Shown here piece by piece: positions 32,200 to 46,645 of a stretch of 64,000 bases of DNA. Both the position numbers and the translations under genes were made by a program. The notes beneath the pieces are model-generated. The model was not told where the DNA came from. It searched no databases and was given only the letters and a program-made list of their open reading frames with translations. Positions within the stretch are counted from its first letter, which is position 1. Every line of letters starts with the position of its first letter. The DNA comes from a phage: the sequence record NC_135728.1, one strand, 5' to 3'.

Positions 32200-32840
32200 C
32201 ACCTGAGTGAACAGGGTGAACAACCGAACCATTGGCTATGGCATTAGCATGGCGAAGCGGACGGGTGACGAAAGAGGGGCCGGAGGACACCAGTCACTGC
32301 CATATGATATATGGGTGATAACCTGAAGAGTCTGAATAAGTGTTTAAGTACCAGTCAGAGGAAAAGGTGAATGGTAGCCGAAGGGGGAGGGGGGTTACCT
32401 GCTTCTGTAAACATGCATCTGAAATACTACTTTAGATAACCTGAACCTGCCTTTCTGACAAATATTCCCTATTAAACTTGAATTATTTATAGAAAATACC
32501 ACAACACCACTTAAGTCTTTGATTTTACACACAAATCTTACAGATATTAAACCTCTCTATTTAACATACCTGTAACATATACTATACTCCACCTGTCTGA
32601 TCAATTTCCCCAACTACATCCCCATATTTTCCCTGTCTGTACTACCCCTGCCCCGCCGGGAGTCCCGTCATATCTGGCTTTCCAGCAAATATCACACCCA
32701 CAAATATCATCACCTGAAGAGGGTTTCATCCCATAATACATGCCTTACCTGAAGAGCGCTTCATATACCCCGTAAATTTTTTAATTGACCCCCTCCCCGC
32801 CGCCGGAGGGGTTGGCTTTTCCCACACAAACCTGAAGAGT
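32200..32840. repeat. dispersed ACCTGAAGAG repeats in non-coding region
   Basis: ACCTGAAGAG read at about 32322, 32712, 32750 and 32830, with ACCTGA half-sites at about 32205 and 32440. Confidence 0.5.
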
Positions 32841-33394
32841 CAGCCAGAAATATCTGAACAGCCAGTTATACCACGATTTTGTGCTTGTCCTACAGGAGTG
32901 CTTCCCTGTCAGGAGCCGGTAGCGACTGGAGTGCTGCCAGGCGGACGAAATGGGAATACTTCTCATTCTTATAACAATTCTCAAATATCGAGGCAGTGAG
33001 GCAAATTAATAGGTGAGGCCGTTCACACAGTGGCACAACATTTGCAACCTATCTTGTGGGATTGAATGAGAATACCTATCATTGTGAGAACTGTTATCAT
33101 TACGGGCAATTTAACATAATACCCATTATGCGCACCACTGGCGATACATACAGGGATTTATAACATGAGTTACTGTTTACGTATATAACAATTATATTTC
33201 TTACTATTTGTGTGGGATATAGTTAGCAGCCGATAGATTAGATATTGACCTGCAGACTTCCAACCGTCTAGACGTCTAAACGCCCACACAACAAGGTTTA
33301 TACATACATTACTGAATGTAAACAGGGCCGCAAAAATGCTACCATACAAGATTGTAAATTTTTCATGCAGCACTTGACAAAGAGGAGAAAAACT

Positions 33395-33850: not shown

Positions 33851-34452
33851 ACAATTGCATTGTTAATGATTTCTTATCTTTCTCTTAGTCATCTAATGAT
33901 TCCAGTCAGTCTAGTAATGTACAGTAAACATTAGACGACTAAAGATTTCCCTGTTTATGATAACTCACCGTGATAATTTCAGGCTGTTTACTAAAAATGT
34001 TGACACCTAAGCTGATTTATGTTATGCAGTTTACACGAATAATTATTTTATGCAGGTATTGACTATTCCGTTATTCTATGGTTGGAATAAATACTTAGCA
34101 GACTATAGAATGGTGAGCGTACGTAAATTCTGAGATCTGGCGGCTATAGTTATACTCGATTTTTCACGTAGAACACGCTTTTGTGAGTGTGTAAGTGTAT
34201 GACTTATAAAGATTTTTAGTTGTTGACAAGATATTGAAGATGTGCATCAGGTTAAATTTTGTGCAATAGCGGCATTACGTGCAATTCTGAGAGAGAAAAC
34301 GGGTAAAAATGGCCCTGCTACCACAAGATGAAAGATTATGCAATAGTTATTTTTATATGTATATTTGTACAGTAGGGTTAATTGCTGGCTTGTTGATTAT
34401 TCCACTTGCCAGGTGGGGCCGTTTGTGGTAGGAGAAATACAGACAAAAAGAA

Positions 34453-34480
34453 AGGGGCCTTTTAAAGCCCCTGATAGTTT
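34453..34480 (-). terminator. rho-independent terminator (minus strand)
   Basis: Minus-strand hairpin AGGGGC-TTTAAAA-GGCCCCT followed by TTCTTTTTGTCT after stop of 34491..34910. Confidence 0.5.
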
Positions 34481-34490
34481 AGTTAAGAAA

Positions 34491-34910
34491 TTATAATGAT
34501 TCGTATATTTCAAAAATCCGATTTGCCAGGTCGTTACGGTAGCGGAATTTTTCCTCACGTTTGATCATCAGATCTTTAAAGCCATATTCTTTAAGCACTT
34601 CATTAACTTTATGGCGGCATACCTTCATATTATCTTGTGCGTCACCAATAAACTTGTTGCTATGGTGCATGGCTTTAATTTCTTCTTCCAGGACCAGGGC
34701 AACTATGCGGACCGGATCAAGCTGATAGGCGGTAACATCAATGCGGCATTGTAAACGGCTTTTTACGTCTGCCACCGGATATACTGCAACCTCTTCCCCG
34801 TCAACATTGACAATAATTAGTTTACCATCGATTTCGAATCCTTTCGCCGCCGGACCGTGACAAAAAGCGTTATCAAAGCTATATGCCGGATTATTAGATT
34901 TAATGTTCAT
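34491..34910 (-). CDS. hypothetical protein
   Basis: 139-aa ORF with agagg RBS and upstream promoter. Confidence 0.5.
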   Translation of the reverse strand: MNIKSNNPAYSFDNAFCHGPAAKGFEIDGKLIIVNVDGEEVAVYPVADVKSRLQCRIDVTAYQLDPVRIVALVLEEEIKAMHHSNKFIGDAQDNMKVCRHKVNEVLKEYGFKDLMIKREEKFRYRNDLANRIFEIYESL

Positions 34911-34959
34911 GGTGTTTTTACCTCTTAGTTAATTTTCTTACAACTTCCCTTCAAAAAAG

Positions 34960-34988
34960 AATATAGCAAAACTGCCGATCCTTGTCAA
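34960..34988 (-). promoter_or_regulatory. sigma70-like promoter TTGACA-N17-TATATT with palindrome over -35
   Basis: Minus-strand hexamers read directly; ATCCTTGGTTGACAAGGAT palindrome spans the -35. Confidence 0.5.
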
Positions 34989-35055
34989 CCAAGGATAGCA
35001 TAATTTTTATGTGATCAAGGGGCTTTATTGCCCCCTGATCGTGCAACTTGTTGTA

Positions 35056-35319
35056 TTATTTGTTACTCATCCAGTTTTCCCAGGCTGCCTGATAATCTGC
35101 CTCACTGCGGCGGATCTCTTCTTGCTCTTCAAGTCGGATCTCTTCTTCCAGGTACCCCAAGATATCGGCTTTCTTGGTCTGGCGTAACATCCAATCATCT
35201 TTTTTACGGGTAAAGATCTTATATGCTTTCTCGCAAACCTCTTTTTTGCTACCTTTTTGGACTTCAAGAACTTTGTAGGCCATGTACTGAACTAGTTTAA
35301 GCTGATCAAGACGTTTCAT
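35056..35319 (-). CDS. hypothetical protein
   Basis: 87-aa ORF with agagg RBS. Confidence 0.45.
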   Translation of the reverse strand: MKRLDQLKLVQYMAYKVLEVQKGSKKEVCEKAYKIFTRKKDDWMLRQTKKADILGYLEEEIRLEEQEEIRRSEADYQAAWENWMSNK

Positions 35320-35379
35320 GATGTTTACCTCTTTGTGTGGTTCTGATTAGTGGGCCTCCCGGCCCGTGTCATTATCTTA

Positions 35380-35652
35380 TTACTTACGGCGGCAGAATTC
35401 AAGCGTTTTTAATTGATAATCTTCCTCAGCCTGGAGTACAACCGCCTCGATCATTTCGTTGGCATTGTTGAAGCCATACCCTTTAGCGAACTCGTCCGCA
35501 CCACCTTCGTGATCATGTTCTGCGTTCATCGCTTCCACAAAATGGAATTCCAAATTGTTGAGGTAGGGGCTTGATGTGCCGTCTTCTTTTTCGATGAGAT
35601 CCCAAATAGCATTAAAACGTGATTCGACTTCTTGATTAATCCAGCTTGACAT
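35380..35652 (-). CDS. hypothetical acidic protein
   Basis: 90-aa ORF; upstream promoter and UTR hairpin. Confidence 0.45.
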   Translation of the reverse strand: MSSWINQEVESRFNAIWDLIEKEDGTSSPYLNNLEFHFVEAMNAEHDHEGGADEFAKGYGFNNANEMIEAVVLQAEEDYQLKTLEFCRRK

Positions 35653-35694
35653 AGTGTTTTCCTCTCTTCTGGTTGTTGTGTGGGCACCTTTGCC

Positions 35695-35730
35695 CCTTCA
35701 AGATAAATGTTACCCCACCCCCTGGCAGAT
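35695..35730 (-). promoter_or_regulatory. promoter TTGACA-N17-TAACAT plus 5' UTR hairpin
   Basis: Minus-strand TTGACATCTGCCAGGGGGTGGGGTAACAT followed by GGGCA-AAGG-TGCCC hairpin and RBS. Confidence 0.4.
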
Positions 35731-35870
35731 GTCAACGGTTTTTATAGTTCTTATATGACAGGCAGGCCTGGTGATTGTCTCCCCCTGTTCCCAAGTGCCG
35801 CCCGTTTAATAAGAATAGCAAAAGGGGCCGAACAAGTCAACCCCAAAATCAGTACCAAAACACTTTTTAT

Positions 35871-36182
35871 TTATACGGTCCGGTCATTGGCCTTTGTCCA
35901 GGACCTGGCGATCCGTTTCCCAGTCACCTGGAACGGAGACTGCATTGTGTGTAGTGAATCCAGCGTAAGGGAGGACCGTTTACGGCGTATCTTCAGGATC
36001 GCCAATGTATTGTCCATCTCACGGCCAGGTCCTGGGCGGTATGGTGTGCCTCCAGCGTTAAGGTTGATGATCTCATGTATTGAGATCCGGCGTTGTTTTG
36101 CTTCCGCATCTTTGAAGATAGCCAGTGGAGGCGCTATGCGTTGCCGATACCAATCTAAAACGGTTGGCGTAATAGCGATCAT
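35871..36182 (-). CDS. hypothetical protein
   Basis: 103-aa ORF whose start overlaps the stop of 36179..36370 (ATGA), consistent with the minus-strand cluster. Confidence 0.4.
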   Translation of the reverse strand: MIAITPTVLDWYRQRIAPPLAIFKDAEAKQRRISIHEIINLNAGGTPYRPGPGREMDNTLAILKIRRKRSSLTLDSLHTMQSPFQVTGKRIARSWTKANDRTV

Positions 36183-36370
36183 ATTTTACCCCCTATGTAG
36201 TCCGGTCGGTTTTTCTCTGTCATGCGTTTAAGCAATTCTTGCATATGGCCTATAGCTTGTAGCGTGTCTTCTTCCAGGCTTGAATCTACATAATCAGGAT
36301 CGTCTATCACCTTTTTATGATTATGATAACGCAGTACCGCCAATACCTTTCTAACTTGTTCAGTATTCAT
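36179..36370 (-). CDS. hypothetical protein
   Basis: 63-aa ORF. Confidence 0.4.
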   Translation of the reverse strand: MNTEQVRKVLAVLRYHNHKKVIDDPDYVDSSLEEDTLQAIGHMQELLKRMTEKNRPDYIGGKI

Positions 36371-36386
36371 TTTACATCGCCCTTAC

Positions 36387-36677
36387 TTATTGTTGGCGGT
36401 TTACGTAAGCTTTACCGTTTACCGTCATCGGCAAATCTTCCAGGCCTGGATCTTCCTTAAGGTCGCGAGCAAGTTCACCGCACCGGATACCCTCGAATCC
36501 GTAGTACTCTGTTGTACCGTCATTAAAAGTTTTAGTGGCAAGGCATAAGCGATAAGTAACCCCGATTCGATTGACGGCATGAATATCCGTTAGATTAACC
36601 TCTTTTGCCAGCTCATTAGCCATTGCAGGCGCACTAAGTCCAACAACCAGGGCAACCACTGCGATCATCTTTTTCAT
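36387..36677 (-). CDS. secreted protein with signal peptide
   Basis: N-terminus MKKMIAVVALVVGLSAPAMA is a classical signal peptide. Confidence 0.5.
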   Translation of the reverse strand: MKKMIAVVALVVGLSAPAMANELAKEVNLTDIHAVNRIGVTYRLCLATKTFNDGTTEYYGFEGIRCGELARDLKEDPGLEDLPMTVNGKAYVNRQQ

Positions 36678-36768
36678 TGTGTCTATCCTCTTTCTGCTAC
36701 GTTTAAGGCGGCGGTAACCGCCTGTTTATGATTTGTTGGTTAATTTTCGGGTATCGGTATAAATTAAA

Positions 36769-36984
36769 CTATGCTGTACGCTCAACTATAACAACGGTTT
36801 GGGGGATCTCCCCTTCCACCACTAGTAAGGCCTTTTTCTGCGTGATAGATATCTTTACCCGTTGCAGCGTGGCGGTGAAGTCTTTCATTTCGTCACGCGG
36901 TGTTTTAGTGCAGTACCAGATCTCAGGCTTGCCGATCTGTAAGTTGCGTAAAAATTCTGTTTTGCCCGTTTTGTTAGTGATCAT
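36769..36984 (-). CDS. hypothetical protein
   Basis: 71-aa ORF. Confidence 0.4.
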   Translation of the reverse strand: MITNKTGKTEFLRNLQIGKPEIWYCTKTPRDEMKDFTATLQRVKISITQKKALLVVEGEIPQTVVIVERTA

Positions 36985-36996
36985 TTGCCAACCTCA

Positions 36997-37098
36997 CCCG
37001 ATACCGTTGGAAGACAAGATCATATTAGACATGGTTGCAATCAGGCCAATACCCAGGGCAATAATCAAGATCACTGCATCGATTAATTTCTGTTTCAT
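36997..37098 (-). CDS. small hydrophobic peptide (about 33 aa)
   Basis: Below ORF-track cutoff; translation MKQKLIDAVILIIALGIGLIATMSNMILSSNGIG; coordinates approximate. Confidence 0.3.
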
Positions 37099-37175
37099 GG
37101 TGTTTATTCTCTTCTGTTAGTAACCTTATTCATGGGGCCGCTACCACAGCCCCAGGGTAAGGCGGCTATGTGCTT

Positions 37176-37421
37176 TTAGTGTTTCATTCCAACCATCGCG
37201 GCACGGATCGCCGTAGTGCTGTACTTGAAGCCGTCCGGGGTCTTATCTTGTCCGGTTAGCTCCAGAAAAAGCATCATATCCCGCGCCGCATCATTACGAT
37301 TAGCATTAGCGTTAATAAAGCCTTGGGCCAACCGGTACAATGACTCATCGTTATTAATCCAAAGGCTTACATTCCAATGAGTTTTGTTTTTGTAACCGTT
37401 ATAACCTTTATTGCTTTTCAT
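37176..37421 (-). CDS. hypothetical protein
   Basis: 81-aa ORF with agaggtaaaca RBS. Confidence 0.45.
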   Translation of the reverse strand: MKSNKGYNGYKNKTHWNVSLWINNDESLYRLAQGFINANANRNDAARDMMLFLELTGQDKTPDGFKYSTTAIRAAMVGMKH

Positions 37422-37513
37422 GGTGTTTACCTCTTCTTTGTTCCGGGGTGGCGGATCATTCTACCACCTTATGTATTATGCTTTGTTAGATGGTTGTTTG
37501 TTGTCAAACTATT

Positions 37514-37693
37514 TTAACGATAATCATCGTACGCTTTATTAACCTGGCGAATATAACATTCAAAAGCTAGATCAATAGATTCATATTCACGGATATACTC
37601 ACCATAGGAAACCACATACATTTCTATAGCTTCCTCATATGCGAGGAGAATAGAATCTAAGCCTACGATCTCGGTCTTTGCAATAATAGCCAT
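37514..37693 (-). CDS. hypothetical protein (59 aa)
   Basis: Just below ORF-track cutoff; ATG after agagga RBS; translation begins MAIIAKTEIVGLDSILLAYEE; coordinates approximate. Confidence 0.4.
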   Translation of the reverse strand: MAIIAKTEIVGLDSILLAYEEAIEMYVVSYGEYIREYESIDLAFECYIRQVNKAYDDYR

Positions 37694-37768
37694 GATTTTT
37701 ATCCTCTTTGTGGTTGGTGGGGCTTGTTGCTCCCTTTGATTTATATATTACAGTTTTATATGGTCATG

Positions 37769-38002
37769 TCAACTATTTTCAAAAAATTTTTCTGCTGTGA
37801 TATTCTTCCCGGTAGGGTTCGCTACTTTCAAAATTCTATCATGCACCGGACGCCCGAAAGAATAAGATCCGTATACAGTAAACCAATAATCACCGTCAGG
37901 CTGTACTATTACCGCCGCATATGGTACGCCTTTTTCGTTTTTGCTGACAAAATAGATCACATTGCCATTAATAGCCTCAGCGCGTTTAATTTGTTCCATC
38001 AT
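37769..38002 (-). CDS. hypothetical protein
   Basis: 77-aa ORF with agagg RBS. Confidence 0.45.
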   Translation of the reverse strand: MMEQIKRAEAINGNVIYFVSKNEKGVPYAAVIVQPDGDYWFTVYGSYSFGRPVHDRILKVANPTGKNITAEKFFENS

Positions 38003-38056
38003 GATGATTTACCTCTCTTTATTTTCATAATTGGGGCCTTTTCGGCCCCGCCAGGT

Positions 38057-38341
38057 TTATTTATTGATAGCGTGCAGCGGGAAAGCTACGCCAGGTTGAT
38101 AAATAACCTTTACAACCTCATCAGGACAAAAGAAGTTGCAGAACTCACCGCAGTAGGCCTCATCCTCTTTCAACTCTTCATTAACATACTCAAAAAAGTA
38201 GTCGATGCTTGGATAATCCTGGCCGGGATTATAGTCAACCATCGTTAATAATAACTCTTGATCATTCCGTAGGATATGCATACCCGCTTTTAAGTATTTT
38301 GCTTCCATTTCTACTACATCGCCAGCGGTAACAATAGCCAT
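38057..38341 (-). CDS. hypothetical protein
   Basis: 94-aa ORF; MAIVTAGDV N-terminus resembles 37514..37693. Confidence 0.45.
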   Translation of the reverse strand: MAIVTAGDVVEMEAKYLKAGMHILRNDQELLLTMVDYNPGQDYPSIDYFFEYVNEELKEDEAYCGEFCNFFCPDEVVKVIYQPGVAFPLHAINK

Positions 38342-38543
38342 GATTTTAACTCCTATCTATCTGGTCAATGATTGGGGGCCTCCCCCCTCGACAACTCTTA
38401 TTATCCATATTGTCGGGAATGATGCAAGTACTTCTTTAAAAATTTTTTAAGCGCCTTAGGGCCGTTGTAACGTCAAAACAATAAAGGCTATGCGATTGCA
38501 TAGCCTGCTAGTGTTTAGGTCGCTGTAGGCCCTGCCTGGGGCC

Positions 38544-38894
38544 TTATTTTGCATTCTTGCCTGTATTGCCGCCACGGTACCAGCGTTTGCGGTGAAAATG
38601 GTAATAATCCCCCTCGGCATTAAACATCAGATGATTTTCAATAACCAGCTTACGAAGGTGGGCCGGATCTTGTTCCATTCTTGCCAGATTCCGGCGGCTG
38701 TTACGTAAACGGATAAATTCCATATTCAGGCCGTTGATTGCAGCATGGATGTTAAAGTAACCACCTTTGAGACGTTCACGCATGGCGTTAAGCTCAACAC
38801 AATATACAGATTTCTCACAAATCAAGGTATTAGCTAGGGCGCGGACCTGGGCAAGGGGGTTAAGCTCATTAAGGTAATATAATTTAACTTTCAT
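38544..38894 (-). CDS. hypothetical protein
   Basis: 116-aa ORF. Confidence 0.45.
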   Translation of the reverse strand: MKVKLYYLNELNPLAQVRALANTLICEKSVYCVELNAMRERLKGGYFNIHAAINGLNMEFIRLRNSRRNLARMEQDPAHLRKLVIENHLMFNAEGDYYHFHRKRWYRGGNTGKNAK

Positions 38895-38911
38895 AAAATC
38901 ACCTGTTGAAA

Positions 38912-39220
38912 TTAGTTTGAGAAAACATCGTTCACAATAGCGATCACAATGCCGCTCACCTTGTCACGGTCAACAATGCACAAATCACCATAGATCATGT
39001 GGTAGTCTGGATGATCTTTCACAGAATAGTCAATAAGTGTTTTCTTGTCATCCAGCTTCGTAACTTCCATTCTCATAACGATATGAGAATCATCAAAGGC
39101 ATTATTCCGAAAAGTCATAGCCTGACCGCCAGGGCACCCAGTGATCTCCACTTCCACACCATCTACGATCTGACCATCAAAGAAATAAAGATTATTAGCC
39201 TGGATAAACATGTCTATCAC
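38912..39220 (-). CDS. hypothetical protein
   Basis: 102-aa ORF downstream of copy 1 of the repeated promoter element. Confidence 0.45.
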   Translation of the reverse strand: MIDMFIQANNLYFFDGQIVDGVEVEITGCPGGQAMTFRNNAFDDSHIVMRMEVTKLDDKKTLIDYSVKDHPDYHMIYGDLCIVDRDKVSGIVIAIVNDVFSN

Positions 39221-39257
39221 TCCTTGTTAACTGCGTGGTATTTTAACAGGGTTTAAA

Positions 39258-39303
39258 TTTACTTTATTGATGGCCCTGGAGTCAAGGCCATCTAAAAATA
39301 AAT
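39258..39303 (-). promoter_or_regulatory. repeated palindromic promoter element, copy 1
   Basis: Minus strand AGATGGCCTTGACTCCAGGGCCATCAATAAAGTAAAT: TTGACT-N18-TAAATT with GATGGCC...GGCCATC palindrome. Confidence 0.45.
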
Positions 39304-39304
39304 T

Positions 39305-39505
39305 TTACAGGCCTACAATCTCTTTGATTCGTTTAACCGCTGCCTCAGCGCCTTGGGGGTAAAAATTATGGTAACCAATCACGCGAGTGATACTAATCGC
39401 CGTTTGATGATCTTCATAGTCGCCCTTGAAGATTTCTTGACCGTCAATCAGCACGGCAATTTTTTCTTCTTTTTTGAAGTTAATAACGCGGATATTGTTG
39501 CTCAT
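39305..39505 (-). CDS. hypothetical protein
   Basis: 66-aa ORF with aggaga RBS. Confidence 0.45.
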   Translation of the reverse strand: MSNNIRVINFKKEEKIAVLIDGQEIFKGDYEDHQTAISITRVIGYHNFYPQGAEAAVKRIKEIVGL

Positions 39506-39654
39506 TTTGTTTCTCCTTTCTGGTTTTTGTGGTGGTGGGGATTAGCTCCCCCCGTTGATTGTTATTATCCACATTCCGGACCGGATTGCAACACCCCGGA
39601 AGAAAATTTTTTTTTTTTTTTAAAGATAGGCCCCCATGATCGGGGGCCGTTATC

Positions 39655-39771
39655 AGTTACTTACAGCGATAAAATACATCCCTACGCCTAACAATATTTC
39701 AAGGGCGATGATCTCAAGCCATACCATAGCACGGCGCGCCTTATCGGTGCGGGGCTTATCCTTGGTTGTCA
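39655..39771 (-). CDS. small hydrophobic peptide (about 38 aa)
   Basis: Below ORF-track cutoff; strong RBS ggagggaagggggag; translation MTTKDKPRTDKARRAMVWLEIIALEILLGVGMYFIAVSN; coordinates approximate. Confidence 0.3.
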
Positions 39772-39792
39772 TCGTCTCCCCCTTCCCTCCTG

Positions 39793-40014
39793 TTAGCAGT
39801 TACGTGGTTTGCAATGGCCCCCAGGAGTATTATCACCACGCACATTGCAAGAAAAATTATCTCTGTCGTTGTTCGATCCATTGTTATAAAATTCCTCAAG
39901 ATCAGGCCTGAAAATAAAGCGTTCGTTATTGAATCCGTCACGCCAGGCGGCTGGCTTCAAATCTTCACTAAAGGGATTAATTAACGTGGCATTATTTAAA
40001 CGGTTGGCCCACAT
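39793..40014 (-). CDS. hypothetical protein
   Basis: ORF track 39793..40032; ATG at 40014 after gagaggaa RBS is the likelier start. Confidence 0.4.
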   Translation of the reverse strand: MWANRLNNATLINPFSEDLKPAAWRDGFNNERFIFRPDLEEFYNNGSNNDRDNFSCNVRGDNTPGGHCKPRNC

Positions 40015-40396
40015 ATTTTCTATTCCTCTCAAATAGGCGATCCGCCTCAGTTAAACATATCTCATGGGCTTGATCTCTGGTTTTAGCCTCATCAAAAACC
40101 TGTTGTGCCAGGCTGCAGCGTAGGGAGACTGGAAGATCGCTATAATAGGCGTTGACAAACGTTTGAGCGTCGTACAGGTCTGAAAATACTTTACCCTTTC
40201 TATTATTCCCCTTGTCAACAATTGCAAGGATAACCAATACAATAGTTGCGACTACCCCCAGGAAAATAGATATAATAAACCATAAAAAGGCGGATCTTCC
40301 CATCTTGCCAGCGATCCAGGCGTTAAACAAGGCAACCAATACAGCCAAAATAATAAATTCCATTCTATGTACCTCTTTTACAGTTCTGATTAACAA
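39992..40396 (-). CDS. membrane protein
   Basis: 134 aa with two TM-like segments (FIILAVLVALFNAWIAG, FLWFIISIFLGVVATIVLVILAIV). Confidence 0.5.
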   Translation of the reverse strand: MLIRTVKEVHRMEFIILAVLVALFNAWIAGKMGRSAFLWFIISIFLGVVATIVLVILAIVDKGNNRKGKVFSDLYDAQTFVNAYYSDLPVSLRCSLAQQVFDEAKTRDQAHEICLTEADRLFERNRKYVGQPFK

Positions 40397-40427
40397 TAAG
40401 GCGGCAAATATGCCGCCTGTTACCTGA

Positions 40428-40808
40428 TTAAAAATTATCGCCGTAAATCTTTCCGCTTTCTACCCATACCACCACGCGAGGCATACTATCCCACACGTCT
40501 TGTTTTAGATTGAGCGCGTGCAATTCTTCGGTGGTGCTCATACCGGGCACGGGCTGATTGTATACTGCAAAACGACCGCCTGCATAATCATAGGCCAGGG
40601 TTAAATCACACTGGATCATCTTTTTGATCATGGCATTAAGCATGGCGTTAGCCGCATATTGATCACGTTTTAAAGGCAACTCTTTGATTAGTTTGCGATA
40701 GTTTTCGATATGGTCGCACACTGTTTCACGTGGAAGATCTTTCATATCCTCGCGAAAGGTAACCAGGTTAAACATAACGGTGTCAATGGCTTTAGTGGTG
40801 CTTTTCAT
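40428..40808 (-). CDS. hypothetical protein
   Basis: 126-aa ORF with agagga RBS. Confidence 0.5.
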   Translation of the reverse strand: MKSTTKAIDTVMFNLVTFREDMKDLPRETVCDHIENYRKLIKELPLKRDQYAANAMLNAMIKKMIQCDLTLAYDYAGGRFAVYNQPVPGMSTTEELHALNLKQDVWDSMPRVVVWVESGKIYGDNF

Positions 40809-40896
40809 GATGTTTTCCTCTTTGTTTTGTGTGGGGCAAACGTCTTGCCCCTTGAGTTTTAATATAGCAGGTTTTTAGGTTATTGCAACACTTTAT

Positions 40897-41520
40897 TTAT
40901 GAAAAAGTCATCTCGCCATATTCATCCACATCAAACCGCCAATCATTGGCCTCGATAAGGCCGATCAGGTTTTCGGTAGTAAATTGTTCAAGATAAGCTT
41001 GCTCCAGGTCTACGTAAACCTTGCGGGATAGCTCCCGTACCGTCTCGGTGATCAGCTCTTCCAGCTCTTCAACTTTGTCCTCTTGCTTGGTGGTCAGGTC
41101 TAGCCAATTAGTATCGATGCACCCTCCTATTGTGTTTTCGTGGTGATAATGGCTAAACGGGATACGTTCAACACTGGCTGATAGTTCGCCATCGTGCATT
41201 GTGCCGAACAAGTGACGAATTGATCGGAACTTGGTCAGGGCCTTTACTTTACGCAAGAATTTTTCTAAATCCACGTTTTCCGCACTGATTGACGCGCCGT
41301 CACCCTGGCACCAAAAGCCTGACCAATGTACTTCGGTATCTTCAAGGCCATACTCTGGAAAAACATATTCTTTATAGTATTCAATTACACTTTCTGCAAA
41401 AAAGTTATCCCCGCTGTGTTCTTCTCTTTCGCGTACCATTTCAATGGCTTTTTCTTTTTGTTCGTCGGTCAGCACGTCGAAAGATAAATTGTAACCTGTG
41501 GTAATGTTAACGGTGGTCAT
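40897..41520 (-). CDS. hypothetical acidic protein
   Basis: 207-aa ORF with aggag RBS, downstream of promoter and UTR hairpin. Confidence 0.5.
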   Translation of the reverse strand: MTTVNITTGYNLSFDVLTDEQKEKAIEMVREREEHSGDNFFAESVIEYYKEYVFPEYGLEDTEVHWSGFWCQGDGASISAENVDLEKFLRKVKALTKFRSIRHLFGTMHDGELSASVERIPFSHYHHENTIGGCIDTNWLDLTTKQEDKVEELEELITETVRELSRKVYVDLEQAYLEQFTTENLIGLIEANDWRFDVDEYGEMTFS

Positions 41521-41578
41521 GATATTTTCTCCTGTTTTCTTTGTTAGTGGCGGGAAGTTTTCCCGCCTATGTTTTTTA

Positions 41579-41606
41579 ATTATACTTATTGAGATTTACT
41601 TGTCAA
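41579..41606 (-). promoter_or_regulatory. sigma70-like promoter TTGACA-N16-TATAAT
   Basis: Minus-strand consensus hexamers; transcript leader contains GGCGGGAAAACTTCCCGCC hairpin (plus coords about 41548-41566). Confidence 0.55.
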
Positions 41607-41856
41607 CACTATTTTTTAAATTATTGTGGCGCAAAATGTTTAAAATCTTCTCAACGTCATCAACACGGCGGCAATTTTTAAACGCTACCAATTGCCCCAT
41701 GATTTTAATCACTGGGCGGCCTTGCCAGTGCCCCTGAAGAAAGCGCGCCTTGACTTTATCGGTGGAACTATCACGCCACCAAATAGCCTTGTTGTTGCAG
41801 TAGTAAAAATTATTCAGGATAACATCAACTTTATCAAAATTTTTTAATTTACGCAT
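41596..41856 (-). CDS. hypothetical protein
   Basis: 86-aa ORF. Confidence 0.45.
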   Translation of the reverse strand: MRKLKNFDKVDVILNNFYYCNNKAIWWRDSSTDKVKARFLQGHWQGRPVIKIMGQLVAFKNCRRVDDVEKILNILRHNNLKNSVDK

Positions 41857-41894
41857 GGCGTTTACTCCTTTCTCTCTTTGATGTGGTTAGTATA

Positions 41895-41925
41895 GCTAAC
41901 CTGTTGACGATGTCAATGATATTTT
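41895..41925 (-). promoter_or_regulatory. sigma70-like promoter TTGACA-N16-TATACT
   Basis: Minus-strand hexamers read directly upstream of 41596..41856. Confidence 0.45.
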
Positions 41926-42035
41926 TAACGCCACAAAACGGCCCTGGGCGATGTTTTCAGGTTAAAGGGGGCGATTGCATAGGTGGGGGGCCTTTTTGGC
42001 ACTTATAGGGCCAACCAGGGGCGCTATTCGTAGGG

Positions 42036-42068
42036 TAGAAATAAAAAGCCCCGCACGATGGCGGGGCG
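42036..42068 (-). terminator. rho-independent terminator (minus strand)
   Basis: Minus-strand GCCCCGCC-ATCGT-GCGGGGC hairpin then TTTTTATTTCT after stop of 42076..42297. Confidence 0.6.
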
Positions 42069-42075
42069 TTGGTTG

Positions 42076-42297
42076 TTAGTTGCCTTTGTGGCGGTATCGT
42101 TCCGCCTGCCGTTCACGTTCCAAAAGGAGGCCCGGCAATTTACGATCATAATGATTTCGCCAGATCTTCCCAAATCTTTTTGGCTTATTCAGTTTATTGT
42201 TACGCTGGCGGCGTTCCGGCAGCTCTTCGGAATCATGAGATCGCTTTACAATTTTCTCAAAATTAATCTTCATATATTCCCCCCTTGCTAACTTCAA
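42076..42297 (-). CDS. hypothetical basic protein
   Basis: 73-aa ORF. Confidence 0.4.
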   Translation of the reverse strand: MKLARGEYMKINFEKIVKRSHDSEELPERRQRNNKLNKPKRFGKIWRNHYDRKLPGLLLERERQAERYRHKGN

Positions 42298-42616
42298 TAT
42301 TGGCCTGAATAGCCCGGATACGGCGCTTTATAACTTCCTGATCTGTGTGATCGTATCCCCAAAAGTCCACAATTTTTGCGCCCCCTGCCTCCAAGCGGTA
42401 TAGTGTTTCCTGCATCTTGTAAGCCGGGATCGGTCGCGGTGTTACTTGGTCACCTTCTTTATTTTTATACTTTATAATATAATCTTCGTTATCGTTGAAT
42501 GTCCAAAATGGATATTCTGCAAGGGCGGTACTTCCTCTTTCCTTTTTATCCTGGATCTTGTTTACAATTAAAGCCGTAGCAATAGCGCCAATAATAAAAC
42601 TAGCCCCGCTGATCAT
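42263..42616 (-). CDS. membrane-anchored protein
   Basis: 117 aa with N-terminal TM (ISGASFIIGAIATALIV). Confidence 0.45.
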   Translation of the reverse strand: MISGASFIIGAIATALIVNKIQDKKERGSTALAEYPFWTFNDNEDYIIKYKNKEGDQVTPRPIPAYKMQETLYRLEAGGAKIVDFWGYDHTDQEVIKRRIRAIQANIEVSKGGIYED

Positions 42617-42690
42617 GTACTTTCTCCTTTCAAGGTGTTAATAAATTATCTTTATAGATGGCCCTGCAGCCAGGACCACCGAAAAAATAA

Positions 42691-42936
42691 CTATTTCACA
42701 ATGCCTACAAAACAGATCCCGCCTTCACCTATATAAGCAATATCGGTCACTTTGTAGTTGGTCAAGATCTGTTTATTTAGATCATTAATAAAATCGGTCA
42801 TTGCGTTGGTGTAGTTGTCTTCCGTATCTAAGGCATAATCCCAGGTGTAAACCTTTTTACGTCCGAAGCCTTTTACCATGATACGGGCGCTTTTGGTGTT
42901 GGTAGGGGCATAATATTTGGTGATTAGTGCTGCCAT
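42691..42936 (-). CDS. hypothetical protein
   Basis: 81-aa ORF downstream of copy 2 of the repeated promoter element. Confidence 0.45.
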   Translation of the reverse strand: MAALITKYYAPTNTKSARIMVKGFGRKKVYTWDYALDTEDNYTNAMTDFINDLNKQILTNYKVTDIAYIGEGGICFVGIVK

Positions 42937-42979
42937 GGTTTTAACTCCTATGCATTAGTTCAGTGTTAACAGTATAAAG

Positions 42980-43026
42980 TTTACTTTATTGATGGCCCTG
43001 GTGTCAAGGCCATCTAAAAATAAACT
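42980..43026 (-). promoter_or_regulatory. repeated palindromic promoter element, copy 2
   Basis: Minus strand AGATGGCCTTGACACCAGGGCCATCAATAAAGTAAACT: TTGACA-N18-TAAACT; identical to copy 3. Confidence 0.45.
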
Positions 43027-43367
43027 TACTCGTTTTCTTCCAGCTCCGCAAGCTCTTCTTTTGCTTCTTCCAACTCTGTCTGCAATTCCTGATATTCTTC
43101 ATCGTCCTCAATATCCAGGCTGTCGATGTAGTCGCTAAATCCGCAGCGGTAAGCGATAGGATCTAGCTCCTTGAGGATACGCGACGGAAGAAAAGAAATG
43201 TTTCCGATCATAATTTCGCCGTAGATCTCGTCCAACCATTCATCATAGTTTTCGTCGTACTTGTCCTCGTCGATTTCAAAGTTATCGATCTTATTCTCAA
43301 GGTCTGCGATCTGTTTTTTCAGGGCAGCGATCTGAATAGCTTTTTCTGCGGCGGTCATAGTAGTCAT
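43026..43367 (-). CDS. hypothetical acidic coiled-coil protein
   Basis: 113-aa ORF with aggaga RBS, downstream of promoter and UTR hairpin. Confidence 0.5.
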   Translation of the reverse strand: MTTMTAAEKAIQIAALKKQIADLENKIDNFEIDEDKYDENYDEWLDEIYGEIMIGNISFLPSRILKELDPIAYRCGFSDYIDSLDIEDDEEYQELQTELEEAKEELAELEENE

Positions 43368-43418
43368 GGTGTTTTTCTCCTTTTGTGTGTTCTGGGAAGT
43401 TTTCCCGTTTATGTGTTT

Positions 43419-43446
43419 AGTATACTGATCTAAGTTAGCTTGTCAA
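43419..43446 (-). promoter_or_regulatory. sigma70-like promoter TTGACA-N16-TATACT
   Basis: Minus-strand hexamers; leader contains CGGGAAAACTTCCCAG hairpin. Confidence 0.5.
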
Positions 43447-43566
43447 TTAAAAGTTTAAGAAAAATTTTGCGACACTGTTGGCGCTACCCATCAACATTTG
43501 CGCCAGGATGTAACCAATGATGCAAACGATAATAGTTACCTTTGTGTGCTGGCGTGTAGTACTCAT
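43447..43566 (-). CDS. small hydrophobic peptide (about 39 aa)
   Basis: Below ORF-track cutoff; RBS aaggggg; translation MSTTRQHTKVTIIVCIIGYILAQMLMGSANSVAKFFLNF; coordinates approximate. Confidence 0.3.
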   Translation of the reverse strand: MSTTRQHTKVTIIVCIIGYILAQMLMGSANSVAKFFLNF

Positions 43567-43600
43567 CTTCAAGCCCCCTTTTTAGCTTAACTGGGATTAG

Positions 43601-43647
43601 TTTACTTTATTGATGGCCCTGGTGTCAAGGCCATCTAAAAATAAACT
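43601..43647 (-). promoter_or_regulatory. repeated palindromic promoter element, copy 3
   Basis: Same 47-bp sequence as copy 2. Confidence 0.45.
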
Positions 43648-44042
43648 TAGTAAGTTTTCAGTACTTTCCCGTCCAGTCTGTCAAGCTGGATCTCGATAGC
43701 TGCAGAAAACCTATTATAAACCACATCGCCCATGGAGTCCAGCCAATCTATGACGTTATACACCTGCTCTTTATTCTTGCAAGTCCGGATCCGTTTCATT
43801 ACGTAAGACGGATCAATATTAGTGCTCTCGTTGTTGTGGTCATGCGCCTGGCCTGCTGCATTAGTTATAGATTTTACAACCACCTGAAAGGGCTTTAAGG
43901 TGCCTTTTGCGTTCATCTCACGCGCTTTTGCGGCGCGGTTGTTATATGTTACACAACGGCGGCAAATGTTGACCAAATGCATATCAATAATTTTTTCATC
44001 GTTTGCCAGTTCGTTCATGATGCGGCGTACGTTCTTATTCAT
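43647..44042 (-). CDS. hypothetical protein
   Basis: 131-aa ORF with aggaaa RBS. Confidence 0.5.
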   Translation of the reverse strand: MNKNVRRIMNELANDEKIIDMHLVNICRRCVTYNNRAAKAREMNAKGTLKPFQVVVKSITNAAGQAHDHNNESTNIDPSYVMKRIRTCKNKEQVYNVIDWLDSMGDVVYNRFSAAIEIQLDRLDGKVLKTY

Positions 44043-44090
44043 GATCTTTTTCCTTTGTGTTGGCGGGAAACATTCCCGCCTTTTGTGCCT

Positions 44091-44118
44091 AGTTTACTTG
44101 AATTTTGCAGCGTGTCAA
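44091..44118 (-). promoter_or_regulatory. sigma70-like promoter TTGACA-N16-TAAACT
   Basis: Minus-strand hexamers; leader contains GGCGGGAATGTTTCCCGCC hairpin (about 44062-44080). Confidence 0.5.
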
Positions 44119-44124
44119 TGATTT

Positions 44125-44523
44125 TTATTCGTGGGCGCATGTTACAATGTGCTTTTTATAGCCTAGATGATCAGCAAGTGCCGACAAAAACTCTTCTTCA
44201 TAGATCCAGCCGTTGGCAGTGATCCCCATAGCATTTAATGCGCTCTCAAGTGCTGCGTTAGCTTTATCATAACCGTATCCGCTGGCCTTGCCGCCAGTAT
44301 AACCGTACTTATTGTTCTTGCTGTCGTGCATCCAAAAGACGCAATAATGAGTATTACCGCTGGAGGCGGCATAATACCGGATCTCAGCTACTTCGTGCAA
44401 ATTATTGTCATCGTCCAGGCCCACCAGATTATAAGCCTTATAAAATCCACGATCACGGCGGCAGTTCTTGACATCAGAAAAAGAAAAGTCCGCATTATCA
44501 AAATTAAAGGTGGTGGTTTTCAT
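44125..44523 (-). CDS. hypothetical protein
   Basis: 132-aa ORF with agagga RBS. Confidence 0.5.
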   Translation of the reverse strand: MKTTTFNFDNADFSFSDVKNCRRDRGFYKAYNLVGLDDDNNLHEVAEIRYYAASSGNTHYCVFWMHDSKNNKYGYTGGKASGYGYDKANAALESALNAMGITANGWIYEEEFLSALADHLGYKKHIVTCAHE

Positions 44524-44587
44524 GATTTTATCCTCTTAGTGTCTTTTGTGCTTTTAGTGTATTTGGTGTCGTACTATATGTCAATAC

Positions 44588-44785
44588 TTATTTTTTATTA
44601 AACCAGTGGTTGATCTGGCCTTTTGTCAGGGCGCAACGATTAAGCTGTTGCCGGGTATAGCTCTGACCACGACGGAATTTATAAAGGCCTTGCCCGTTGT
44701 TGATGGTTACATCCACCCGGCAAATCACTTGATCCGTGACCACCTGGCGAGTGTTGCGACGTACTTTGATTCCGTAGGCGTTCAT
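44588..44785 (-). CDS. hypothetical basic protein
   Basis: 65-aa ORF with agagga RBS. Confidence 0.45.
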   Translation of the reverse strand: MNAYGIKVRRNTRQVVTDQVICRVDVTINNGQGLYKFRRGQSYTRQQLNRCALTKGQINHWFNKK

Positions 44786-44849
44786 GATTTTTTATCCTCT
44801 TTGTTAATTAGTGCGGTGTTGTTCACCTTGCGATAATAAGAATAACAAG

Positions 44850-44885
44850 AACTGCCCGAGCTGTCAACCATTATGTAAAATTATT
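44850..44885 (-). promoter_or_regulatory. sigma70-like promoter TTGACA-N17-TATTCT
   Basis: Minus-strand hexamers upstream of 44588..44785 with AT-rich upstream tract. Confidence 0.4.
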
Positions 44886-45014
44886 TTTTGGGTAGAATTC
44901 TCCAGCCGCCACCCCTGCCAGGTTTGCAAGCTTTCACTCTCCCACCTGGTCAGTTAGGTCCTGCTAGGGCTGGCCCCGCCAGGTTGCAGCAGTTGACGCA
45001 CTATGTTAGAAAAA

Positions 45015-45145
45015 TTTTTTGAAAAGTGTTGACAACGGCCCCACCAGGTGGCACAATATACATATCGAAAGGACGGCAGGCACCGGTGACGGGGGAGACA
45101 ACCACCGGGGATGGGCGCTGCATAAAATGAGAACGGTTATCATTA
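45015..45145 (+). ncRNA. candidate small RNA 1 (promoter plus structured region)
   Basis: AT-rich UP-like tract then TTGACA-N17-CACAAT; downstream GC-rich palindromic segment CACCGGTGACGGGGGAGACAACCACCGGGG and 3' motif GAGAACGGTTATCATT; no ORF. Confidence 0.3.
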
Positions 45146-45174
45146 TCATTTAAAAATTTATGCAAAAAGTCCTT

Positions 45175-45285
45175 GCTTTCTTTGTCCTGTGTGATACTAT
45201 AATAACAAGCCGGGGCAGCAGGGGCCGGGAGACAATCACCGGGCCTGCCCGTTATTCTGCAAACGAGAATGATTATCATTCAAAA
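45175..45285 (+). ncRNA. candidate small RNA 2 (promoter plus structured region)
   Basis: TTGCTT-N16-TACTAT with TG extension; downstream GC-rich segment GGGGCAGCAGGGGCCGGGAGACAATCACCGGGCCTGCCCG and 3' motif GAGAATGATTATCATT parallel to candidate 1. Confidence 0.3.
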
Positions 45286-45394
45286 TTCTAAATGAGAACT
45301 CCTCGCATTTAATAAATTTAATTAGCATGCTAATTACCATCCGTAACAATTTCCTATAAAACAGTATCCACTAAAATATTCCCATATAGAAATT

Positions 45395-45800
45395 TTAAAA
45401 ATCCATTTCTGAAAACGAAAAATCGATTTCGTCCCCAAAAATTTCAGGTCGAGAGCCGGAACGATTTCCAGAAAATCCGATTCAGAAAACGAAAAACAGA
45501 TCGAGTACTGAGAAATTTATCGAGAAAAATTTTCAGAAAATTCAATCTTTGAAATGAAAAACAGATCGAGTACCTGGAAAGCTGCACCGCAACTTCAAGA
45601 TAGTGGTTAGATTGTTACCATAGAAGGTCAAGGGTAAGTGGAGGGAGTTATAGTAGAAGGATGTGAGTATGTGCAGGAAATCTGTAATGGTGGTCTGGAA
45701 TATGGTGCAAACGATAGGATGGGTGATTCAGCTTGTCGCGCCCACTCTGAAAAAATCCATTTTAGTTTTCGATCCATTTTCTGATTTTCTAAGGATTTTA
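45395..45800. repeat. degenerate TTC(A/T)GAAAA repeat array
   Basis: At least 7 copies of TTCAGAAAA/TTCTGAAAA/TCCAGAAAA plus longer repeats GAAAACGAAAAA(T/C)(C/A)GAT and AAATCCATTTTAG x2. Confidence 0.5.
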
Positions 45801-45886
45801 AAATATCCAGCCCGGTGAAATATCAAAAGGAGGAAATCCATTTTAGAAATCCTCCTTACACTTGATATGCCAGGAATTTTCAAGTA

Positions 45887-46216
45887 TCAGCTGTCTTTGT
45901 TTTTAGGTTTGTACATGCGCAGAGGTATGGTCTTTGTAACATTCCATTTCCTCAACCCTTCCCAGCTCCAGTTGTGGGCGTGATACCCGGTTATGCATGC
46001 ACTGCTGGCGTGATCATAGGCATAAGAGAACGCTATGCGTAACAGGTGGGGCCAGTCTCTCCACGGCTGTGGTCCGTAAGCCTTTCTCCAACACCGACAT
46101 AAACTAAATGTCTCAAGAATAGGCAGGATAACAAATCCATACACCACCACCAAGATGATCAGCGCAATGATTGTCAGGAATACATACCCTGCAGTTGAAA
46201 TGATGATCTCTGTCAT
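45887..46216 (-). CDS. membrane protein
   Basis: 109 aa with N-terminal TM segments. Confidence 0.5.
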   Translation of the reverse strand: MTEIIISTAGYVFLTIIALIILVVVYGFVILPILETFSLCRCWRKAYGPQPWRDWPHLLRIAFSYAYDHASSACITGYHAHNWSWEGLRKWNVTKTIPLRMYKPKNKDS

Positions 46217-46413
46217 TTGTCATCCCCTTTACGAATATAGATGTGTGAGCCTGCCTGTATATAAATTTCTCGACCATCTTCTGCAAAGATGTGGAATACA
46301 CGGTCACCTTCGTATTCAACACGAGATATCTTCATAACGGTCTTCCCACCAGGAATGCGGATCTCATCCCCCACAGCAATGTTCCATGCAGATTTAAGCT
46401 TAAACATCGACAC
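46213..46413 (-). CDS. hypothetical protein
   Basis: 66-aa ORF, coupled. Confidence 0.4.
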   Translation of the reverse strand: MSMFKLKSAWNIAVGDEIRIPGGKTVMKISRVEYEGDRVFHIFAEDGREIYIQAGSHIYIRKGDDK

Positions 46414-46645
46414 CCTCCTTTGGGAACTTGAACTCTGGCATAGCCATATACGCTACAACAGGGTTGTGATCAAAGTAGAACTGACCATTAATTATCCCAG
46501 TTTTTTGCACATAGTCACCAGATCCTGCAAGAACAACCTCGCAAGCTCCGAAATCTACATTGCCATCCTCATCAGCCATGGCTACGATATACTTTCCAAG
46601 AGGCATGTTTTTAACGCCGTCTACAAATGTCCACTCTGTGTTCAT
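46400..46645 (-). CDS. hypothetical protein
   Basis: 81-aa ORF, coupled. Confidence 0.4.
   Translation of the reverse strand: MNTEWTFVDGVKNMPLGKYIVAMADEDGNVDFGACEVVLAGSGDYVQKTGIINGQFYFDHNPVVAYMAMPEFKFPKEGVDV

Follow-up and report, generated by a model that had tools for sequence, protein, structure and literature searches.

A candidate family of promoter-proximal structured RNA leaders coupled to Fur-type operators in rV5-like phages and their relatives

Why should a stretch of about 22 nucleotides recur, without a change, in parts of a phage genome that seem to encode nothing? The question arises from the initial annotation of the window, i.e., the whole 64,000-nucleotide stretch of phage DNA analysed here (sequence record NC_135728.1), which reported a conserved element of roughly this length in three non-coding spots. 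In megablast comparisons with GenBank phages, the region 34000-46500 matched Escherichia phage Murica over its full length at 98% identity and was highly identical to many further Vequintavirus (rV5-like) genomes; judged by its sequence, the window is that of an rV5-like Vequintavirus, a phage of E. coli. Between 33 and 48 kb, all credible genes are small minus-strand genes with the annotation "hypothetical," and searches of Pfam and PHROGs with the proteins flanking the copies of the element gave matches of unknown function only and yielded no candidate for a binding factor. In a consensus-based promoter scan, this early region is crowded with minus-strand sigma70-type promoters, which are typically followed by a short 5' GC hairpin, a CA-rich leader, an RBS and an ATG. 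Four D1 repeats, consisting of a hairpin and a T-run with embedded promoter hexamers, are found among the small early genes. The region of two of the copies was marked in the rV5 genome paper merely as a "non-coding" box, without explanation (PMC3606486), and in the literature we found no description of the element, and nothing specific on non-coding RNAs or transcriptomes of rV5 or PVP-SE1 or on Fur boxes in phages.

The exact 22-mer GGCAGGCCYGGTGATTGTCTCC occurs at 35761-35782 (plus strand) and at 45228-45249 (minus strand), with 0 such occurrences expected from 100 shuffles. A 17-nt core, GGGAGACAAYCACCRGG, is present without a mismatch in three places, referred to here as copy A (35767-35783, minus strand), copy C (45093-45109, plus strand) and copy B (45227-45243, plus strand), whereas 0.29 sites would be expected by chance; no fourth core site exists in the 64 kb at up to three mismatches. 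The recurrence at three spots is thus real. Copies B and C are direct repeats about 134 nt apart, and copy A is inverted and 9.4 kb away; the match between A and B extends to 29 nt at 90% in a repeat search of the window. The position first given for the copy at about 35762 (plus) holds, whereas "about 45215" was some 13 nt off the true 45228-45249 (minus). The "variant at about 45070" is indeed a third copy, but its core lies at 45093-45109, is an exact 17-nt match, and has the same orientation as the copy at 45.23 kb and the opposite one to that at 35.77 kb; the orientation first assigned to it is mimicked by GGCAGGCACCGGTGA at 45075-45089 because the region is quasi-palindromic. With 22 nt identical and a sequence that is not of low complexity, the repeat is neither a shared stretch of under 12 nt nor a product of base composition. 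The two open reading frames that had been considered spurious, 35707-36231 (plus) and 45001-45279 (minus), do exist and both read TGRPGDCLP across the element. Their dismissal is reasonable, as the first overlaps a conserved minus-strand gene (phrog_13681), and the second, annotated as Murica gp179 or rV5 ORF198, differs from three relatives by 4/9/9 substitutions at codon positions 1/2/3, i.e., without a third-position bias.

Each copy follows a promoter. All promoters and start sites given here are consensus predictions, and the element was modelled by two covariance models, R1, made from five Certrevirus sequences and a hand-drawn structure, and the broader R2. The promoter of copy A (35812-35844, minus strand) consists of TTGACT-17-TATTCT at 35840-35812 with a TG before the -10, and is combined with a terminator-like hairpin (35844-35824, minus strand) that carries the -35 in its loop and is followed by a T-run. 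Murica has an annotated terminator at this position, and terminator/promoter composites stand upstream of A-type copies in other genera too. The predicted start of transcription, at about 35805, coincides with the first paired base of a 61-nt leader hairpin (35750-35810, minus strand). It matches R2 over its full length (23.3 bits, E 7e-4) and has a minimum free energy (MFE) of -18.1 kcal/mol (z -1.95) on the minus strand vs. -14.4 on the other. rV5, Certrevirus and Phapecoctavirus, among others, have A-type homologues. Copy A points leftward, the way the genes run, toward a terminator-rich early region. It is located not immediately before an ORF, but upstream of a further promoter (35707-35735, minus strand, TTGACA-17-TAACAT), which, read from 35735 to 35707, is predicted to drive the gene at 35380-35652 via an ordinary short 5' hairpin and CA-rich leader.

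Copy C follows promoter P1 (45008-45057, plus strand), an A/T-rich UP-like stretch with TTGACA-17-CACAAT (hexamers 45029-45057), which is the sole strong plus-strand promoter that the promoter scan found in 34.5-46.5 kb. P1 is conserved in rV5 and isim, and its UP/-35 part is 93% identical to a minus-strand promoter at 37793-37767. The leader hairpin of copy C (45066-45128, plus strand; core 45093-45109, inner stem CCGGUG/CACCGG) has an MFE of -20.1 kcal/mol (z -2.73) and is matched by R2 in its core only (11.9 bits, E 0.75). Its 5' half matches copy A of rV5, and in Murica CACT replaces CACC, giving a G.U pair on the plus strand. In other genera the slot of copy C is held by RNA1, another conserved RNA of about 95 nt, which was not found in this Vequintavirus window. 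Copy B follows promoter P2 (45173-45203, plus strand, TTGCTT-19-TATAAT), a homolog of the CTTGCA-17-TATATT promoters that precede B-type copies elsewhere; its strength in this phage is uncertain because the 19-nt spacer is atypical. The 56-nt leader hairpin of copy B (45205-45260, plus strand), with an outer stem GGGCAG/CUGCCC, an inner stem CCGG/CCGG and the apical sequence GAGACAAUCA, is recovered with 38.1 bits (E 3.5e-8) by R1, a model built from Certrevirus only, and its MFE is -21.6 kcal/mol on the plus strand vs. -18.1 on the other, with a single-sequence z of only -0.72. Copies C and B are both conserved in rV5 and isim. They are read rightward, antisense to all neighbouring genes, into a non-coding region of about 1 kb with iteron-like repeats (at 45.4-45.6 kb), which holds three direct repeats of 65-74 nt and a 16-bp inverted repeat in 45.3-45.9 kb. 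None of the copies A, B and C is followed by an RBS-ATG or an ORF.

We compared about 40 loci from GenBank, IMG/VR and metagenomes, the GenBank relatives listed being 240-356 records. In sensitive blastn searches close relatives align over the entire intergenic regions, whereas distant phages, namely Certrevirus KaOmega and CR8, Seunavirus GAP31 and 4MG, Mydovirus Mydo and KB57, Henunavirus Hena1, Phapecoctavirus ESCO5 and Justusliebigvirus-like phages, align in blastn over window positions 45225-45316 and 35770-35823 only. DNA similarity that is confined in this way to the element and the bases right beside it is the pattern left by selection on a non-coding element. R1 recovers the element in a Vibrio phage and in at least six genera (Certre-, Seuna-, Mydo-, Henuna-, Phapecocta- and Justusliebigviruses), typically as two copies per genome and always on the promoter strand, and the family covers two phage subfamilies. 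R2, run with filters off, found nothing in the window besides the copies. In every genome examined a second, A-type copy is located 6-10 kb off in the opposite orientation. The order around the B-type copies in relatives, given in the window's plus direction, is promoter, RNA1, second promoter, B-type element and two to four Fur-box-like palindromes, after which a further promoter and repeat-rich, AT-rich DNA follow; an Enterovibrio phage has two tandem promoter-element units and then Fur-like boxes. Copies A and B also vary together within genomes, both containing GGCCTGCC in the window and GGGGGTGCC in rV5, and both reading GGACCTGCCCGCTATTC in KaOmega, a pattern compatible with a common binding partner as well as with gene conversion. 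Neither the element nor the box had a match in 5,426 E. coli genomes at the sensitivity of blastn, and a host origin or host mimicry was rejected on this ground. An exact 14-base scan of IMG/VR with GGAGACAANCACCGG returned overwhelmingly chance matches in unrelated contigs and was dropped.

The common fold has an outer stem with 6-10 bp, separated by an asymmetric internal loop from the inner stem, for which CCGG/CCGG is usual; AGACAAWCA forms the apex. The invariant, purine-rich and Shine-Dalgarno-like loop GGAGACAAYCACC is the most conserved part of the element. Around it, the complementarity of the flanks is kept across genera while their sequence changes (AUAGCGGG/CCCGCUAU, AUGGCG/CGUCAU, GGGCAG/CUGCCC and CAGGCACC/GGUGCCUG), and variants of the inner stem are still paired, e.g., GCGG/CCGC at locus L158, or UCG/CGA in GEC vs. 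GCG/CGC in ESCO5. In model-fitted alignments of phylogenetically related sequences, from which all pair statistics derive, 85.6% of the cells in 14 model pairs form standard pairs (40 distinct sequences), compared with 37-48% in slid controls in which the partners were shifted by 1-3 columns. Four of the model pairs change on both sides, the remaining ones mostly vary on one side or on none, and the covariation score is 0.200 vs. 0.164 in shuffles, none of 500 shuffles reaching 0.200. Pairing is more complete on the promoter strand than on the opposite one (85.6% vs. 78.6%), as there are 60 G.U but 22 A.C cells, and all three copies of the window fold at least 3.5 kcal/mol better on the promoter strand. 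These pairing results favour a transcribed hairpin, with a weight that is moderate rather than conclusive. RNAalifold predicted essentially no structure on the model alignments, owing to insert columns and partial rows in these gappy alignments, and explicit pair counts were used; a MAFFT alignment of the B-type elements had misplaced the inner stem and was replaced by the covariance-model alignments. A pseudoknot between the internal and apical loops (AUUG/CAAU) was discarded, as by eye it is not conserved in L147, L150 and phiTE, and so was a CsrA sponge, with one to three GGA per element, not clearly above expectation.

The position of the promoter with respect to the hairpin is fixed as well. 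The end of the -10 hexamer lies, throughout the family, four bases ahead of model position 1, and a start 7 bases downstream would therefore hit the first paired base. Promoter scores average 7.7 of 12 in the forward direction vs. 5.4 in reverse, with forward exceeding reverse in 31 of 38 cases. The suggestion of the initial annotation that conservation here implies a functional RNA structure or a protein-binding site is thus supported as far as a functional conserved element is concerned, by DNA conservation limited to the element and the sequence next to it, the fixed promoter distance, and the upkeep of the hairpin with its G.U/A.C asymmetry in favour of the promoter strand, and we consider that this element most probably acts as RNA.

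A further component of the module is a palindrome resembling the Fur box, the operator of the ferric uptake regulator, which has the 19-bp consensus GATAATGATAATCATTATC (PMC4506495). After copy C, a Fur-box-like operator at 45126-45147 reads GATAATGATAACCGTTCTC on the minus strand and matches the Fur consensus in 16 of 19 positions (45129-45147), with 0.03 such matches expected by chance. A second one at 45253-45285 (core 45262-45280) abuts copy B, reads TTGAATGATAATCATTCTC on the minus strand, matches in 15 of 19 positions and holds a perfect 13-bp palindrome, AATGATAATCATT. To the consensus of the phage boxes, AATGAGAATGATTATCATT, the box of C (45126-45144) has two mismatches and that of B (45262-45280) one; at up to three mismatches this consensus has three matches vs. 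0.06 expected. Copy A of the window is without a Fur-like box. In most relatives the box begins exactly 1 nt past the end of the element, in the A-type copies of Certrevirus 31-32 bases after it, and the ATTCTG tail of the hairpin resembles part of the extended operator. When the box pattern was scanned against metagenomes, it was found in further phage modules and also in unrelated bacterial contigs without the element, where it behaves as ordinary Fur boxes are expected to. The palindrome might fold into an AU-rich second hairpin as well; in its commonest version (ATTATC), however, this pairing is lost, which argues for a site on DNA.

What a Fur-type operator at this place might do was considered in two further forms. 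A reverse promoter, TTGAAT-18-CAGAAT, overlaps the box in the window, and a Fur-repressed reverse promoter is possible in this window (CAGAAT); as a general feature it was rejected, since the base at -11 is not conserved within the family (20 sequences with A, 17 with T, 6 with G). A Fur roadblock completing a hairpin-dependent termination was rejected because of its inferred geometry, since the operator starts at the 3' arm, which a blocked polymerase would not yet have transcribed. Three more Fur-like boxes are located in another non-coding kilobase of the window, at 32.95-33.10 kb.

Our preferred reading, to which we give somewhat better than even confidence, is that the 22-mer is the conserved apex of a factor-binding 5' leader hairpin of 55-60 nt, heading three small, non-coding, promoter-led and Fur-coupled units. 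On this reading the element would represent a new family of promoter-proximal structured RNA leaders that is coupled to Fur-type operators, and most likely a regulatory leader that binds a factor. Transcription by host RNA polymerase would begin a few bases ahead of the hairpin, which would thereby become 5'-terminal at least in copy A and in most relatives, and the variable outer and inner stems would serve to display the invariant loop. This loop might be recognised by a phage or host factor in the manner of nut or put sites or of an operator leader, and the adjacent Fur operator, if bound, could tie the downstream outcome (read-through or the use of a neighbouring promoter) to the iron status of the host. 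Given that the ordinary early leaders of this region also begin with a 5' GC hairpin, the element would be an elaborated, ORF-less version of such a leader. Compared with the repeat first noticed, this adds the organization in promoter-led units, two of them antisense, the family spanning two subfamilies and the Fur-box-like operator within the module. It is tempting to go further and to see in element and operator a clade-wide iron-sensing switch that tunes early or antisense transcription or the firing of an origin, in which a constitutively initiated leader with its factor-binding loop would be coupled to the occupancy of host Fur. The clade would comprise large virulent enterobacterial and Vibrio phages (Vequintavirinae, Stephanstirmvirinae and relatives). 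We regard this extension as unlikely, though worth stating. A titration of host Fur by these several sites in the course of replication is conceivable as well.

Among the alternatives, the one that survives best attributes the conservation to duplex DNA: a phage or host transcription factor would bind GGAGACAAYCACC, and perhaps the Fur-like box with it, at about +25 to +40 from a promoter and act as a roadblock or repressor, the dyad being incidental. The core is indeed conserved as a sequence rather than as a structure, and keeps a fixed distance to the promoter as well as to the palindromic Fur-type operator; covariation is modest, and a conserved non-palindromic 13-mer at a fixed promoter-relative position would suit a DNA-binding protein equally well. 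Nevertheless, the core is no palindrome, the flanks stay complementary while their sequence changes across genera, and duplex DNA offers no reason for the 60:22 excess of G.U over A.C. A pure DNA operator appears unlikely to us.

Rather more doubtful is the notion of generic cassettes of a promoter and a 5' stabiliser, spread and homogenised by recombination in the way of PeSLs, which would have lost their ORFs and share 22 nt through gene conversion or duplication. In favour of such cassettes, a GC hairpin stands behind nearly every early promoter in this region, copy A has a composite promoter like the D1 repeats, and A and B vary together within genomes. The core is also similar to the local RBS context GGAGA-AAACACC-ATG, and PeSLs are recombination points in T4-like phages (PMC4122927). 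However, core and architecture persist from E. coli phages to the Enterovibrio phage, in surroundings that have diverged beyond detection by blastn, and the ORF-less state and the link to the Fur-like box are conserved along with them, which argues for purifying selection on the unit.

The position of copies C and B raises the question whether their hairpins might lead origin-activating or primer transcripts (cf. the T7 phi1.1A/B and T4 oriF/oriG promoters) and shape or stabilise the primer. Both P1 and P2 face away from all genes toward the repeat-bearing 45.3-45.9 kb, in related phages the same position holds a third forward promoter and CGATCGAGAAC-type repeats, and the region is the one that the rV5 authors left as a "non-coding" box (PMC3606486). 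Yet copy A and the A-type copies elsewhere point toward ordinary early genes, and nucleotide skew reflects the direction of transcription only, with a small local change at 45.4-45.8 kb. We consider the origin explanation improbable.

Just as improbable, in our estimate, are trans-acting base-pairing sRNAs with the exposed loop AGACAAUCACC as a seed against host or phage mRNAs, even though the units have promoters of their own, no ORF, and a conserved, potentially single-stranded stretch of 10-13 nt in several copies per genome. A Rho-independent terminator with a U-tail is missing, the hairpin instead being followed by AUUCUG or AUAUAAG, and no complementary site was found in the window besides the copies, nor a match in E. 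coli. In the same way, an Hfq-type sRNA was rejected (promoter and conserved loop present, Rho-independent terminator and U-tail absent). The hairpins themselves were discarded as intrinsic terminators, since they lack a U-tract (their tails are AUUCUGC in B, AUAAAAUG in C and AUAUAAG in A), and a terminator scan requiring at least 5 T in 8 flagged no copy on either strand.

A small protein gene, encoded by Murica gp179 or rV5 ORF198 on the minus strand or by the plus-strand frame 35707-36231, is very improbable: a CDS over the B/C region is annotated in several GenBank records, and GAP31_069 and Mydo_072 overlap A-type copies with 77% identity over 22 aa, but, in addition to the 4/9/9 substitutions and the overlap of the plus-strand frame with a conserved minus-strand gene, the length of the element varies from 55 to 58 nt and thereby breaks the frame across genera, by eye the frames differ among KaOmega, GAP31, ESCO5 and GEC, and the annotated CDSs (Murica gp179, rV5 ORF198, GAP31_069 and Mydo_072) are probably artefacts.

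As to known RNA classes, Rfam 15 at the gathering threshold returned for the entire window a group I intron only, and at a permissive threshold 44800-45900 and the KaOmega locus showed only chance-level matches, none of them on the element. ARAGORN found no tRNA or tmRNA in the window or in three related loci.

The element is real, conserved and hitherto undescribed, and what is new about it is the leader family, in the reading preferred here, and the unusual link to a Fur box. The "non-coding" box of about 1 kb in rV5, unexplained since 2013, now has a concrete anatomy. Vequintavirinae and Stephanstirmvirinae are widely isolated and used in therapy and biocontrol, and their early regions are almost wholly "hypothetical." Should the link to Fur prove true, it would offer a clear example of how a virulent phage reads the iron status of its host via a host regulator, and should the loop bind a factor, the two would make up a new RNA-protein pair in phage regulation.

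Within the preferred reading of a factor-binding leader, the closest analogs in layout are the nut sites of lambda (boxA/boxB) and the put sites of HK022, promoter-proximal RNA elements of early transcripts that act on the transcribing polymerase. Like these, the element is a short RNA hairpin predicted after early promoters on both strands of the genome, with an A-rich, sequence-conserved loop and, in the case of copy A, a terminator-rich region downstream. GACAA of the element's loop is presumably also present in the boxB loop of P22. Unlike lambda nut, the element has no boxA consensus, its bipartite hairpin is far larger than boxB, no genes follow copies B and C, and no N-like protein was recognised. 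The best boxA candidates, CGCTATTC or CGTTATTC, lie 3' of the hairpin, match in 5-6 of 8 positions (6 of 8 for CGCTATTC compared with the boxA consensus CGCTCTTA) and overlap the extended Fur-like operator; judged by boxA, a lambda-type nut site is not supported. The put sites of HK022 are two adjacent stem-loops that bind RNA polymerase; in the element one bipartite hairpin is supported, with the AU-rich hairpin that the Fur-like palindrome might form as a possible second. The resemblance to nut and put would be one of layout only.

With 5' stabilising stem-loops, such as those of the ompA leader and the T7 gene 10 leader (GGGAGACCACAACGGUUUCCC), the element shares a hairpin at or near the predicted start; those, however, need no conserved loop and precede an ORF, whereas in the element the loop is the most conserved part and the ORF is absent. 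PeSLs of T4-like phages are composite terminator/promoter motifs and known recombination points (PMC4122927). Such a composite of hairpin and T-run with promoter hexamers is found in the promoter of copy A (35812-35844) and in the D1 repeats, but not in the element, as a PeSL stem-loop stands before the promoter and ends the upstream gene, whereas the element, the larger of the two and with a conserved loop, comes behind the promoter.

An rV5-like phage, phiTE, is known for a non-coding RNA, pseudo-ToxI (PMC3475682), and the start of the ToxI repeat, AGGTGATTTGCTACC, superficially resembles GGTGATTGTCTCC. ToxI-like repeats, however, are 36-nt tandem repeats at another genome position (144049-144117 in DU_PP_IV vs. 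82656-82740 for the element), and phiTE carries a normal B-type element as well (L151). A ToxI-like antitoxin RNA was rejected, as the element has no tandem repeats and the ToxI-like loci of related phages lie elsewhere; element and pseudo-ToxI are unrelated. The phage boxes, finally, resemble Fur boxes in their consensus matches (16/19 and 15/19) and in their central 13-bp palindrome, and differ from them in location, as they lie downstream of the forward promoter and the hairpin rather than over its -35 and -10 hexamers.

The element, a predicted leader hairpin with a conserved 22-mer apex, has two copies in opposite orientation, and within each genome examined these co-vary: this holds for the window (35761-35782 versus 45228-45249), for rV5 (L141 and L176) and for KaOmega (L006). 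Both window copies read GGCCTGCC, while both rV5 copies read GGGGGTGCC. Such co-variation points to gene conversion or co-selection acting over 6-10 kb.

In five genera the B-type element, the counterpart of window copy B, is directly preceded by RNA1, a conserved candidate non-coding RNA of ~95 nt with its own predicted promoter, in which a variable hairpin separates GCCACCCCACGGCGAAAAGGCGGGGCUAACGUACC from GGUCGGAAGGUGGAUCGCCGGUAG. RNA1 was found in KaOmega (L006, 11856-11981), at the related-phage loci L007, L009, L002 and L130 and at at least 20 others, and had no match in Rfam. The window lacks RNA1 and has copy C (45066-45128, plus strand) in that slot, and Raoultella phage Ro1 carries an HNH-like gene inserted immediately after RNA1. 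In certre-, seuna-, mydo- and phapecoctaviruses a tandem motif, TGTAAAGA-nn-TGTAAAGA, abuts the upstream side of the -35 box both of the B-type promoter and of another early promoter (sites at L006 ~11965-11990 and at L007 ~11920-11945 and, on the minus strand, ~2375-2400). It may be a binding site for an activator or a repressor; none was seen in the window. GenBank records of related phages place CDSs, namely Murica gp179, rV5 ORF198, GAP31_069 and Mydo_072, across the promoter-hairpin units (window 45001-45279, minus strand; L007 2543-2665; L009 4700-4849), and these CDSs are probably annotation artefacts.

Downstream of copy B, a non-coding region of 1 kb holds a direct repeat of 65-74 nt, built around GATCGAGTAC and present three times (45385-45580), and a 16-bp inverted repeat (45405-45442). 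Repeats of the CGATCGAGAAC type occupy this position in related phages, and the array is a candidate replication origin or set of iterons. A second non-coding region of ~1 kb (32200-33170), at the edge of the early gene block, has no copy of the element and contains three further sequences resembling the Fur box, the operator consensus of the host iron regulator (32949-32969, 33064-33084 and 33085-33103); in Hena1 the equivalent area lies near the annotated direct terminal repeat. Elsewhere in the window, a group I catalytic intron (Rfam RF00028; 54232-54467, minus strand; 64.7 bits, E = 4e-14) presumably interrupts a phage gene.

Downstream of most early promoters on the minus strand between 34500 and 46500, for instance those at 41606, 44118, 40888, 39591 and 35735, the transcript would open with a short, GC-rich hairpin at its 5' end and continue through a CA-rich spacer (CACACAAC..) to an RBS and the ATG, which looks like a general leader design in this phage group. 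The copy A promoter (35812-35844) is built to the same design as a 51-nt repeat present in four copies (39256-39306, 42644-42694, 42978-43028 and 43599-43649), which on the minus strand reads as a hairpin, GATGGCCTTGACACCAGGGCCATC, with a TTGACA -35 box inside the loop, followed by an A/T run bearing the -10 box (TAAACT). The four repeats are predicted terminator/promoter composites similar to PeSL, the composite stem-loop motif of T4-like phages.
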